Source: Candidatus Woesearchaeota archaeon | GTDB lineage: Archaea; Nanobdellota; Nanobdellia; SCGC-AAA011-G17; JACPIM01 | Assembly (NCBI GenBank): GCA_964513145.1 | Contig: CAZELK010000007.1 | Span: forward strand, 11,960-50,803 | Length of the DNA: 38,844 nucleotides | Direction of reading: 5' to 3' | Part shown: one piece after another, positions 4,510 through 26,945 of the stretch | How the letters are laid out: each line of letters begins with the position of its first letter | How positions within the stretch are numbered: position 1 is the first letter of the stretch | The notes under the pieces: generated by a model | Told to the model about the DNA's origin: nothing | Seen by the model: only the letters and a program-made list of their open reading frames with translations | Database searches by the model: none | Program-made: the position numbers and the translations under genes

Positions 4510-5472
4510 ATGAAAAGACTAGCACAAGAAAATAAAGAATCTATCAAAAAATTAGCTAATGAAGGTTTAAGTTTAAGGGAAATTCAGAAAATAACAAAGA
4601 TCCCATTAAGTACTTTACAATATAATTTAAATAAAAATAGTGGTCGAAAAAGAACAAAAGAAATTATAATTCCCGAATCTGATTTTTTAAGGGGTGAAAT
4701 AATTGGCGCTTTTACTGGAGATGGCTGTTATAAATATACAAAGAGAGGTAGGTCTAGAAACCATTTAATTACATTTACATTATCTTTTGAAAAAGATAAA
4801 TAATATTGTGATTATCTTGTATCTTTATTGAAGAAATTTGATCTTAAAGTTAGTGTATATATTAAGAAATTAAAAAATAAACCCACAGCATTTGAAATAA
4901 GAACATATTCTTTAAATTTCATAATCTTTCTTAAGAACTACCTAATATGGGAGAATAAAAAATTATCCATAAACAAAAACTGAAATTCCAAAACTAAAAC
5001 TTATTCTGTTCATTTAAAACAATCTGTGGAAAATTATTCGGAGGAATTTTTGTTGGGGTTCGCAAGAGGATTAATGGATACTGATGGTTTTGTTAGTAAT
5101 AGAGTTGGATGTGGAGTAGTTTCGGAAAGATTAATTGATAATTTAAAAGAGATACTCTCAAAAAATTATATTAAATCTATTATTAAAATAATTAAAAGAC
5201 CACTAAATAGAAGAGATTTGTATTTATTAACAATTGATAAAAGAAATTTAAATAATTATGAACAAAAAATAGGTTTTAGCAATTTAAGAAAAAAGAAAGA
5301 ACTTCTTAAAAAAATATTAAAAATGAGGCCGCCAGGATTTGAACTTTCCCAATTGTTTTTCAATTTCTGGGTCGCAAGGTGGTTTGCTTTTTTTATAAAG
5401 TCCCAAACCTCGAAGTCTAACCAAGTTGGCCCATTAAAGTCTAGCCTACGGCTATATGCTTCGAAACAGTAG
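4510..5472 (+). pseudogene. HTH plus double-motif LAGLIDADG homing endonuclease with two in-frame stops
   Basis: N-terminal HTH (GLSLREIQKITKIPLSTLQY), motifs IIGAFTGDG and FARGLMDTDG in one frame; TAA 4801-4803 and TGA 4981-4983; frame reads antisense through tRNA-Pro. Confidence 0.85.
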
Positions 5473-5484
5473 TTTTAAAGTCCC
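5324..5484 (-). tRNA. tRNA-Pro(UGG) with four introns (3/4, 15/16, 37/38, 52/53)
   Basis: Exons 5484-5482, 5452-5441, 5425-5402, 5380-5367 and 5344-5324 join to a 74-nt cloverleaf with acceptor GGGGCCG/CGGCCTC and anticodon loop TTTGGGA. Each junction folds as a strict or relaxed BHB. One D-stem mismatch. Confidence 0.88.
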
Positions 5485-5605
5485 ATACCTTGCTAACTGA
5501 TACTGACTGCCTCATTATTTTAACCGACCAATCTTATTTATAAATCTATTTATGCTAATTTAAAACAAACAAAAGCTTTATAAGAATATTTAAAAGTAAA
5601 AAAAT

Positions 5606-11961: not shown

Positions 11962-11999
11962 GAAAGATTTAAAATTCTATTTCTGATTGAATTATTTAT

Positions 12000-12073
12000 G
12001 GGCTCGTAGTAGAACTGGTTAATACGCTCCCATGGCATGGGAGAAACTTCGGATTCAAATTCCGACGAGTCCA
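12000..12073 (+). tRNA. tRNA-Ala(GGC), intronless
   Basis: Acceptor GGGCTCG/CGAGTCC with G3:U70, anticodon stem CTCCC/GGGAG, loop ATGGCAT. Confidence 0.93.
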
Positions 12074-12340
12074 TTATAATCAAAGAAAAAAGCTTTACCA
12101 AAAAAAATTAAATAAAGAAAATGGAGTGCGCCCCTAAAATGAGACAAATAGATAAGTATATTTGATACTCAAAATTAGGAGATGTACATGATATTATCAA
12201 GAAGAAAATATTTATGTTAAATGATATTCCAGAAATAAGTTATAAAGAAGATTTTTAGCAATTAATCCAATTATCTTAAATGAGATTTAAATAAAATTAA
12301 GGTACTAAAAACTTATAAATATTAAAATCATATTAAACTT

Positions 12341-13847: not shown

Positions 13848-13969
13848 GTCGCCGTAGTTCAGCCTGGCTAGAACACAGACTTTAGGTGTAACTCTCATAT
13901 CCACTTTAGTGAGCTAGGCTGTTGTCGCCAGAGGTTTTTAACCGGCGAATTCAAATCTGGCCGGCGACA
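13848..13969 (+). tRNA. tRNA(CAU), probably elongator Met, with three introns (29/30, 37/38, 53/54)
   Basis: Acceptor GTCGCCG/CGGCGAC; introns 13879-13891, 13900-13915 and 13932-13949 with central helices ACAC/GTGT, CTCA/TGAG and CGCC/GGCG; anticodon CAT 13896-13898. Confidence 0.88.
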
Positions 13970-17780: not shown

Positions 17781-18356
17781 CGTTTAAATTCTAAACAGCC
17801 AACCATAAATTTTATATTTAATGAATCTGAAAAAGTTAGATGGCTTGCTATAAAAACTTATTTTGACTTTGATGGATGTATATACCCTTCATTTAAATTA
17901 AAAAGAAAAATTGACCGAAAGAAAGATAAGTTTTATTTATATTACCAGGTACAATTTGGGTGTGAAATTAAAATCGCTGAAACTAATCCAAATTTAAATG
18001 ATGAATTAATTATATTATTTAAGACTCTTGGTCTAAATGCAAAGAAGAAGTTCCGAAAAAGAAATTGGAGTGGATTAGAGGGTGTTGGATTTTCTGATCG
18101 AAAAAGCGTATTAAAATTTATAGAATTTGGAAAGCCCATAACTGATATAAAAATTTCTTCTAAAAGTAAACGTTTTGAAAGTTTAAAGAAAATTTATTTA
18201 TTTAGTGCTGTTGAAAAAATTTTGCTTTATAACTTACTTCCAACTTCGTGCACATTTAAAAATTATAAAGACGCCTTAGATTGCAAAACTTATTTAAATA
18301 GAGAATTAGAAAAATTAGTGAGAGATAGCCCTGATAACAGCCCCGTGGAAGTTTAA
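17781..18356 (+). pseudogene. 5'-truncated LAGLIDADG endonuclease (C-terminal domain, no start codon)
   Basis: Open frame from after TGA 17778-17780 to TAA 18354-18356: ...TINFIFNESEKVRWLAIKTYFDFDGCIY...; absent from the ORF track because it has no start codon. Confidence 0.72.
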
Positions 18357-18444
18357 TCTGCGGAATGTAGCGGCCAAGCACATAGCCCTTTGGTCTTTTA
18401 TAGGGAGCAAGGCTTTGACCCAAGTTCGAATCTTGGCGGGGCTA
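18339..18444 (+). tRNA. tRNA-Gln(UUG) with two introns (10/11, 37/38)
   Basis: Acceptor AGCCCCG/CGGGGCT; introns 18349-18365 (CCGT/GCGG) and 18394-18409 (CTTT/GGAG). Confidence 0.9.
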
Positions 18445-18493: not shown

Positions 18494-18596
18494 AGTCCTG
18501 TCGTTCAGCGGTCAAAGATATAAAATCGACTTTGGACACTCGGCTCTGGAAATTGGAGACCCCGAGAGATCGGAGGTTCGAATCCTCCCAGGACTA
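18494..18596 (+). tRNA. tRNA-Gln(CUG) with two introns (21/22, 37/38)
   Basis: Acceptor AGTCCTG/CAGGACT; introns 18516-18533 (GGTC/GACT) and 18550-18560 (CTCT/GGAG, 11 nt). Confidence 0.9.
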
Positions 18597-21792: not shown

Positions 21793-22359
21793 TTAAGGTC
21801 GCATCCAACGACATTCATAATAAGTAACATCGCCTTCTGCATCAACTATTGCAAGCATCAATCTCTTTCTTGTAGAATGTGCAACTCTATTTTTTGCTGA
21901 GAATTCATACCAAGTTAGTATTTCTCCTTCATTTGCCGGGTAAACTATCCATTTTGCATGGTCATCTCCTGGCTTAATACCACGATCATAAACCCTGAAA
22001 TCAGCACCAAATTTTAATGCTGTTTTTACTATATACCCCCTTGATCTTAAATCCCTAAAAACACAATACCTTATCCAAAACTTTGGCTCTATCTGTCTTG
22101 CTTTTCTTAAAAACTGATCATATGTAACAGGTTTCTTTTTTCCGTCAAAAACATCCAATTTTTTCTTTTCTAACAAGTATAGTGCTTCAACTAAAGAATA
22201 TGAAACTTTGCTTTCTTTTAATTCCCCTACTCTACTTTGCTCATATAATTCTTTACTTAATGGGTCTTCAGAATAAACGCTTTCGCGGGCGAAAATTGCC
22301 TTAATTTTTTCTTCTGGTTTTATTTCCTTTACTTCTTTTGTATCTGTTTTAGTTGCCAT
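21793..22359 (-). CDS. endA: tRNA-intron endonuclease, catalytic alpha-type subunit
   Basis: SLVEALYL, KFGADFRVY (Tyr), DDHAKW (His), RVAHSTRK (Lys), GDVTYY. Confidence 0.95.
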   Translation of the reverse strand: MATKTDTKEVKEIKPEEKIKAIFARESVYSEDPLSKELYEQSRVGELKESKVSYSLVEALYLLEKKKLDVFDGKKKPVTYDQFLRKARQIEPKFWIRYCVFRDLRSRGYIVKTALKFGADFRVYDRGIKPGDDHAKWIVYPANEGEILTWYEFSAKNRVAHSTRKRLMLAIVDAEGDVTYYECRWMRP

Positions 22360-26781: not shown

Positions 26782-26945
26782 GCGGGGATGCCGGAGCGGT
26801 CAAATGTAATGCTTTATTACAGACTTAACGGGCTAGAGATTACCCTAGTAATCGGCTATGCTAAGGGATCAGCCATGCTTAGGCTATCTGATAGAAGAAA
26901 CCTAGTGGCTCAGTGCCTACGGAGGTTCGAACCCTCTTCCCCGCA
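26782..26945 (+). tRNA. tRNA-Leu(UAG) with introns at 21/22, 30/31 (tandem pair or one 40-nt intron) and 37/38
   Basis: Acceptor GCGGGGA/TCCCCGC, long variable arm; introns 26804-26827, 26837-26859 plus 26860-26876, and 26884-26899; anticodon TAG 26880-26882. Confidence 0.88.

Follow-up and report, generated by a model that had tools for sequence, protein, structure and literature searches.

The locus described here raises the question of whether a 161-nt interval that escapes common tRNA finders is a tRNA-Pro(UGG) gene interrupted by as many as four introns. It lies in the window, i.e., the whole stretch of 38,844 nt that was analysed, on contig C7 of a genome assembly (977 kb in 18 contigs, 98.8% complete) from a Candidatus Woesearchaeota archaeon. 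Our analysis favours, with a probability of about 0.88, the reading that the locus is the single functional tRNA-Pro(UGG) gene of a ~1-Mb, 28% G+C Woesearchaeota-like archaeon and that it contains four introns spliced by EndA.

Gene structure and tRNA identity

Removal of inserts of 29, 15, 21, and 22 nt after tRNA positions 3, 15, 37, and 52 (minus strand, 5484..5324) left a 74-mer that was identified by ARAGORN as tRNA-Pro(tgg). The gene and its flanks include the following features:

5537..5544, minus strand: TATA-like box TTTATAAA, 53-60 nt upstream of tRNA position 1 (read from sequence)
5485..5513, minus strand: G+C-rich 5' leader of ~29 nt (BHB geometry and MFE fold)
5482..5484, minus strand: exon 1, GGG, positions 1-3
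5453..5481, minus strand: intron 1, 29 nt, between positions 3/4
5441..5452, minus strand: exon 2, positions 4-15
5426..5440, minus strand: intron 2, 15 nt, in the D-loop between positions 15/16
5402..5425, minus strand: exon 3, positions 16-37, including the anticodon TGG
5381..5401, minus strand: intron 3, 21 nt, at the canonical site 37/38
5367..5380, minus strand: exon 4, positions 38-52
5345..5366, minus strand: intron 4, 22 nt, in the T-stem between positions 52/53
5324..5344, minus strand: exon 5, positions 53-73, with discriminator A; CCA not encoded
5319..5323, minus strand: run of five T immediately past the discriminator (read from sequence)

Introns account for 87 of the 161 nt (54%), which bears out an earlier statement that more than half of the gene is intron; the exons (3, 12, 24, 14, and 21 nt) make up the other 74. 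The unspliced gene thus consists of five G+C-rich pieces alternating with four A/T-rich inserts, and the G+C content of the spliced exons is 59.7% versus 28% in the window and the genome. The five exons follow one another in linear order on a single strand and span 161 nt, so that the gene is neither split nor permuted.

The cloverleaf of the spliced form contains 20 of 21 stem pairs and all eight scored conserved bases. A C12-A23 mismatch and two G-U pairs occur in the D-stem of the mature form, and the D-stem of a congener is built likewise. The proline identity elements for archaeal ProRS are G35, G36, A73, and the G1-C72 pair, and the predicted spliced sequence possesses all of them. The TATA-like box at 5537..5544 is a putative promoter element. 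Since the spacing between TATA box and transcript start in archaea is usually ~26 nt, transcription would begin near position 5513; the T run at 5319..5323 is a likely transcription stop.

Splice motifs of the four introns

All helices quoted for the four inserts in a preliminary description of this DNA are present in the sequence. The strict bulge-helix-bulge (BHB) form, with two 3-nt bulges, a 4-bp central helix, and both flanking helices (hBHBh'), was found in intron 3 (TTTG/CAAA; CTTT/AAAG), whose exon helix is the anticodon stem; the label of a textbook BHB for the 37/38 intron is therefore justified. Intron 1 also forms an hBHBh' motif, with a central helix of 4 bp (TATG/CATA), an intron helix of 4 bp (CTTT/GAAG), and an exon helix h of 2 bp. 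Its central helix is made up of the last three leader bases and G1, paired to CATA in the intron. Since the 5' leader is needed for this helix, the cut at intron 1 would have to precede removal of the leader by RNase P.

Introns 2 and 4 are relaxed motifs, forms of which occur in other archaea (PMC5829648). The central helix of intron 2, GGCT/GGCC (4 bp, one of them G-U), mimics the D-stem; its flanking helices are nearly absent, and the 5' cut site sits within an 11-nt loop. Intron 4 has a central helix of 3 bp (CCC/GGG) next to an A-A mismatch and an intron helix of 5 bp (AATTG/CAATT). The correct product requires the CCC/GGG register, while the register of the MFE fold, CCCA/UGGG, would leave two extra nucleotides. 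This register conflict is the main structural caveat of the analysis.

In all 35 introns of the Pro genes, irrespective of site (24 genomes), the predicted 5' cut precedes an A, falling between G and A or between T and A (G and A in 33 of 35). The 5' bulge reads RGA, i.e., GGA or AGA, in 33/35, and many introns begin with ACTTT. Among the 42 introns of 26 tRNA genes parsed in the genome under study, the 5' cut falls between G and A in 17 and between a purine and A in 24, whereas GA makes up 5% of dinucleotides. In most of these 42 introns the 3' bulge is rich in A, and the bias towards a cut between G and A is strongest in the Pro genes (33/35).

Detection by standard tools and chance controls

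Standard scanners had been expected to miss this gene, and the two that were run did so. The four-intron Pro locus was reported neither by ARAGORN, with or without the -i option, on the window and the genome, nor by the Rfam model RF00005 on the same sequences at the gathering score and at E<=10. No tRNA was called by ARAGORN in the unspliced 161 nt.

The gene was recovered by a motif-constrained search, anchored solely on an intact T-loop and 3' acceptor strand. Jumps of 11-140 nt were allowed where BHB geometry was present (a 4-nt central helix with at least three pairs, plus flanking pairs), and a cloverleaf was then demanded. The best solution was exactly the four-intron parse with 20/21 pairs and 8/8 conserved bases. 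When the 257 nt upstream of the T-loop/3' acceptor were shuffled (n=20), 19 of 20 shuffles gave no cloverleaf with up to four BHB-type introns; the single shuffle that yielded a parse reached 19 pairs and 6/8 conserved bases at best, compared to 20 and 8 in the real sequence. Among the parses obtained from 289 T-loop-like anchors genome-wide, the false ones stayed at 19 pairs, with low G+C content and lower scores. An attempt to use G+C islands as a finder of tRNA loci returned ~1000 regions and was dropped.

Orthologous genes in related genomes

Orthologues were collected by searching relatives from the same order with the locus and members of the same family with the neighbouring gene rpl37ae. 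This gave 24 cleanly parsed Pro(UGG) genes from the order: seven without introns, five with one, 10 with two, and two (in genomes G008 and G009) with three. Among these relatives and the window genome, four introns occur in the latter only. A 25th orthologue, from G030, is a one-intron gene that was read by eye and is kept outside the 24. The introns of the orthologues occupy the same or neighbouring sites, namely 3/4, the D-loop, 37/38, and 52/53 or 53/54, with one each at 33/34 and 12/13. In the seven intronless relatives the exon sequence is near-identical, and the usual position of the gene is directly upstream of rpl37ae. No Pro gene was found by 3'-end pattern in the congener G001, whose contig starts 322 nt upstream of rpl37ae.

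The individual sites differ in how widely they are shared. Site 3/4 is occupied in eight other genomes and so is site 37/38; intron 3 matches the intron of G008 at 19 of 21 positions. The exact 52/53 intron is common only to the window gene and G008, where site, length, and geometry are equal. Site 53/54, the next one along, is occupied in nine relatives, and the perfect 4-bp helix found there covaries with the T-stem. Five relatives possess D-arm introns, mostly 5 nt further on, and site 15/16 is used in the window genome only.

Compensatory changes were observed in the central helices at sites 53/54 (CCCA/TGGG, TCCC/GGGA, CTCA/TGAG, TCCA/TGGA, and TCTC/GAGA) and 3/4 (TATG/CATA, TACG/CGTA, GATG/CATT, and AATG/CATT). 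Evidence from covariation comes from these two sites and is weak for 52/53, with two copies; the 15/16 intron is represented by a single copy.

The congener G002 provides the closest comparison. Its exons equal those of the window gene except that the D-loop is longer by a single T, and it has only the 3/4 and 53/54 introns. Since introns 2 and 3 are absent from this gene, its uninterrupted D-loop and anticodon loop correspond to the predicted junctions. The exons are identical while the introns common to both genes have diverged, which points to purifying selection on the exons, that is, on the presumed spliced product.

The 5' leader

The leader begins with GAGGCAGTCAG, which can form a helix with the 3' acceptor/T-stem strand, and the MFE fold joins the leader to the 3' end. 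In the window gene this duplex has an energy of -17.7 kcal/mol, and 1% of shuffles were as good. A G+C-rich leader of 20-30 nt precedes every Pro gene with a 3/4 intron (n=9: the window gene, L008, L017, L006, L027, L028, L033, L034, and L036). The 5' ends of these leaders resemble the 5' strand of the acceptor stem (GAGGCAG, GGGGTTA, GAGGCTG, GGGTTGG, and similar). Pairing between leader and 3' end amounts to -7 to -19 kcal/mol in genes with the 3/4 intron versus about -1 to -4 kcal/mol in most genes without it, and is better than in composition-matched shuffles in only five of the nine genes with this intron. The leader copy might have been left behind by a duplication, or it might form a helix specific to the precursor.

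Search for further proline tRNA genes

Further proline tRNA genes were sought in several ways. With the spliced tRNA as BLAST query, the sole hits in the genome were generic T-loops and, at this locus, the four larger exons, exon 1 with its 3 nt being too short to register. A genome scan for anticodon arms found the Pro(UGG) arm at this locus only. The absence of another tRNA-Pro(UGG) from the genome, named in the preliminary description as a point to check, is thus supported by both searches; it applies to a genome of 98.8% completeness and, as far as the census of tRNA genes is concerned, to genes with intact T-loops, so that a heavily broken Pro gene could escape.

Genes for Pro(GGG) and Pro(CGG) were not found in the census, which was anchored on intact T-loops and 3' acceptor strands and misses genes with introns in either element. 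Two other candidates were rejected: a Pro(GGG)-like anticodon arm at C12:9013 lies antisense to the end of a short coding frame, and the "TGG" candidate at C2:79411 results from wrong parsing of a tRNA-Gly(GCC).

Splicing machinery

The tRNA-splicing endonuclease had been said to be encoded in the window, and it was located there:

21793..22359, minus strand: tRNA-splicing endonuclease EndA, 188 aa (Pfam PF02778 and PF01974)

This is the only EndA homologue in the genome according to family and protein searches. Residues 42-188 align without gaps to the alpha4 EndA of M. jannaschii (1A79), the best PDB match; an insert of six residues present in the alpha subunit of N. equitans is missing from the protein. 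The closest relatives of this protein in public genomes belong to MAGs named Candidatus Woesearchaeota or Nanoarchaeota. Judged from its sequence, EndA is predicted to be of the plain alpha4 type: one gene, both domains, and no beta subunit. Enzymes of this type, composed of four identical alpha subunits, have been described as strict for canonical motifs, and cleavage of relaxed motifs has been linked to inserted loops (PMC5829648).

The ligase RtcB is also present, on contig C6. Its match falls into two parts ~1.4 kb apart (C6:75368-75541 and C6:76969-78150, plus strand). Profile positions 1-44 lie in a frame with TAG and positions 49-426 inside an 879-aa open frame, which suggests an intein or other insertion in the ligase gene.

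Proposed processing and alternative explanations

In the proposed pathway, transcription directed by the TATA box ~55 nt upstream would produce a ~190-nt precursor with a 29-nt leader. Each intron would fold locally into a BHB or relaxed BHB, and EndA, encoded 16 kb away in the window, would cut both bulges of each motif. The five exons would be ligated by RtcB, and RNase P would remove the leader after the cut at intron 1. CCA would be added post-transcriptionally, since none is encoded. We infer transcription, cleavage at the exact bonds, the order of the steps, and the ability of a plain EndA to handle both relaxed motifs.

The weakest members of the four-intron structure are the relaxed introns 2 and 4, and one may ask whether fewer than four inserts are excised, the 15-nt D-loop or 22-nt T-stem insert being retained or cut elsewhere. 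With a D-loop of 25 nt, or with two surplus bases in the T-arm, no normal tRNA would result; moreover, the D-arm sequence of G002 occurs without the insert, and the 52/53 intron recurs in G008 with equal length and geometry. A variant of the same idea is a three-intron gene in which the leader sequence GAGGCAG serves as the 5' acceptor strand and is followed by one 76-nt intron. The leader does pair well with the 3' acceptor strand, and a parse of this kind starting in the leader exists (19 pairs, six conserved bases), the sole one obtained with fewer than four introns. It was rejected, as it loses the conserved GG of the D-loop and scores lower, and the leader copy mismatches the acceptor in relatives (A2-C71 in G059), whereas GGG joined to GCTG pairs perfectly. 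We regard excision of fewer than four inserts, in either form, as improbable.

Even less probable is a decaying pseudogene, with proline codons read by another tRNA. The gene adjoins a homing-endonuclease gene in fragments, its orientation towards rpl37ae is the reverse of that in relatives, and four introns together with a weak D-stem might suggest decay. Against this stand the intact stems, conserved bases, and all four splice motifs, the TATA box and T-run in place, the failure to find another Pro(UGG) gene, and the preservation of exons, but not of common introns, between this gene and that of G002. Finally, the A/T-rich inserts might be promoter-like, and other tRNA introns of this genome hold a hairpin-plus-tail repeat resembling local promoter sequence; the exons could then be transcribed separately and joined in trans, as in the split tRNAs of Nanoarchaeum. 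Inserts of 15-29 nt are too short for a promoter plus leader, the five exons are colinear within 161 nt, and each motif forms in cis, which makes trans joining the least credible of these alternatives and highly improbable. For the four-intron tRNA-Pro(UGG) gene, the spliced cloverleaf, the shuffle control, the orthologues, covariation, and the presence of EndA and RtcB agree, and all four inserts were confirmed at the positions initially proposed.

Comparison with known systems

Three introns per tRNA had been given in the preliminary description as the usual reported maximum. This is indeed the figure in reviews and in the tRNAscan-SE 2.0 paper (PMC4390854, PMC8450103), but it is outdated by later work. 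Four-intron tRNA genes have been tabulated for Freyarchaeia and Atabeyarchaeia (Supplementary Data 4 of Valentin-Alvarado et al., 2024, Nat Commun; PMC11291895), among them Arg(TCT) and Ile2(CAT) in Freyarchaeia, and up to five intervening sequences per gene, at ~2.2 per gene, have been reported for Asgard archaea (bioRxiv 10.64898/2026.10.13.758758). The Pro(UGG) gene is therefore a well-supported four-intron tRNA, not a record. It resembles the genes of these Asgard lineages (Freyarchaeia and Atabeyarchaeia) in possessing several small EndA-type introns at non-canonical sites, including the D-arm and T-arm, and many of those genes are missed by annotators as well. In contrast to them, it belongs to a DPANN archaeon with a ~1-Mb genome, a single plain alpha-type EndA, and at least 1.6 introns per tRNA gene as compared to ~2.2.

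Features shared with the Thermoproteales are colinear exons, short BHB or relaxed introns at numerous positions, and the recurrence of related introns at more than one site. For these, as quoted from Sugahara (2007/2008) in PMC8450103 and PMC4390854, the stated maximum is three introns per gene, with 1.54 per gene in Pyrobaculum calidifontis. The EndA of Thermoproteales is an (alpha-beta)2 enzyme with a Crenarchaea-specific loop, whereas that of the window genome is a single alpha-type protein. Three-intron nuclear tRNA genes are known from the red alga Cyanidioschyzon merolae, where one gene may hold ectopic BHB introns at 37/38 as well as in both the D-arm and the T-arm, and where splicing intermediates were demonstrated by RT-PCR (PMC3728597). 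This system differs in residing in a eukaryotic nucleus, in having at most three introns per gene, and in that some of its genes are also permuted.

Disrupted tRNA genes have been described from DPANN archaea (Fujishima, 2011, PMC3239211; Kaneta, 2018, PMC5829648). Kaneta (2018) reported marked tRNA disruption and incomplete predicted tRNA sets in DPANN members with alpha4-type EndA and urged manual curation (PMC5829648); the Pro(UGG) gene is of the hidden kind predicted there. The same study ties disruption to an inserted L3 loop, while the EndA examined here displays no insertion relative to that of M. jannaschii, as compared over residues 42-188 only. We found no catalogue of multi-intron tRNAs of Woesearchaeota in the searchable literature.

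An essential decoder of a near-minimal archaeon is thus invisible to ARAGORN and the Rfam tRNA model. Since the Pro(UGG) gene was missed by both, "missing tRNAs" in DPANN are in part, at least, an annotation artefact. With this locus, tRNA genes carrying more than three introns, on record for Asgard archaea, are extended to DPANN, and the range from zero to four introns in one gene across 24 relatives forms a compact natural series in which gain, loss, and sliding of introns can be studied. The gene also makes a puzzle more acute: the sole EndA looks like a strict alpha4 enzyme, yet would have to process relaxed motifs and one motif built partly from the 5' leader.

One speculative explanation is that the Pro(UGG) gene in this Woesearchaeota family reflects introns that are still being gained and lost under the action of a lineage-specific system. 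The idea draws on the cut before A in all 35 introns, many of which begin with ACTTT, on the relaxed motifs that an apparently plain alpha4 EndA would have to remove, and on the dedicated G+C-rich leader that accompanies the 3/4 intron, provides half of its splice helix, and includes a surrogate acceptor strand able to pair with the 3' end; we advance it tentatively, as doubtful. If these features reflected sequence-aided recognition or insertion, and not shared descent, they would bear on how tRNA introns arrive and on the range of substrates handled in the absence of known specificity loops.

Other tRNA genes and genomic neighbourhood

In the whole genome, ARAGORN reported eight tRNAs, or 15 with the intron option, and RF00005 gave 18 hits above threshold, many of them 88-139 nt long. 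The anchored census comprised 26 genes with 42 introns: three genes without introns, 10 with one, nine with two, two with three, and two with four. The spliced forms of all 26 were called by ARAGORN. The resulting 1.6 introns per gene is a lower bound, because genes with T-loop introns are missed.

The second four-intron gene lies outside the window, and five further tRNA genes were found within it:

C5:30086-30251, minus strand: initiator tRNA-Met, four introns, outside the window
11999-12074, plus strand: tRNA-Ala(GGC), intronless, with G3-U70
13848-13969, plus strand: tRNA(CAU), three introns
18339-18444, plus strand: tRNA-Gln(UUG), two introns
18494-18596, plus strand: tRNA-Gln(CUG), two introns
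26782-26945, plus strand: tRNA-Leu(UAG), three introns

The introns of initiator tRNA-Met comprise 29, 21, 14, and 27 nt at sites 7/8, 28/29, 37/38, and 43/44. Its spliced form, with 21/21 stem pairs, A1-U72, and three G-C pairs in the anticodon stem, was called tRNA-Met by ARAGORN. The intronless tRNA-Ala(GGC) was called by ARAGORN and scored below threshold in Rfam.

A LAGLIDADG homing-endonuclease gene (4510-5320, plus strand), broken into at least two frames, abuts the 3' end of the tRNA-Pro gene. Its recognizable parts are as follows:

4510-4803, plus strand: HTH part of the endonuclease
5026-5320, plus strand: LAGLIDADG_3 domain of the endonuclease

An intact-looking homologue of this endonuclease is located between tRNA-Pro and rpl37ae in the congener G003, and the block of tRNA and endonuclease is inverted relative to rpl37ae in the window genome. 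Beyond the second fragment its frame stays open and crosses most of the tRNA gene in antisense orientation, which gives a 148-aa ORF (5026-5472, plus strand). Software for protein-gene prediction would probably report this ORF and thereby hide the tRNA.

A hairpin-plus-tail motif, approximately AAGCTTTT-AGA-AAAAGCTT-AAGCAAAA, recurs in many tRNA introns of this genome and in some protein-gene spacers. It was located at these sites:

C11:25339-25477: hairpin-plus-tail site
C2:50100-50223: hairpin-plus-tail site
C2:34370-34488: hairpin-plus-tail site
C5:64614-64745: hairpin-plus-tail site
C2:79430 region: hairpin-plus-tail site
C2:97394 region: hairpin-plus-tail site

Intron 3 of the Pro gene, with CTTT..AAAG followed by CAAACC, looks like a shortened form of this motif.
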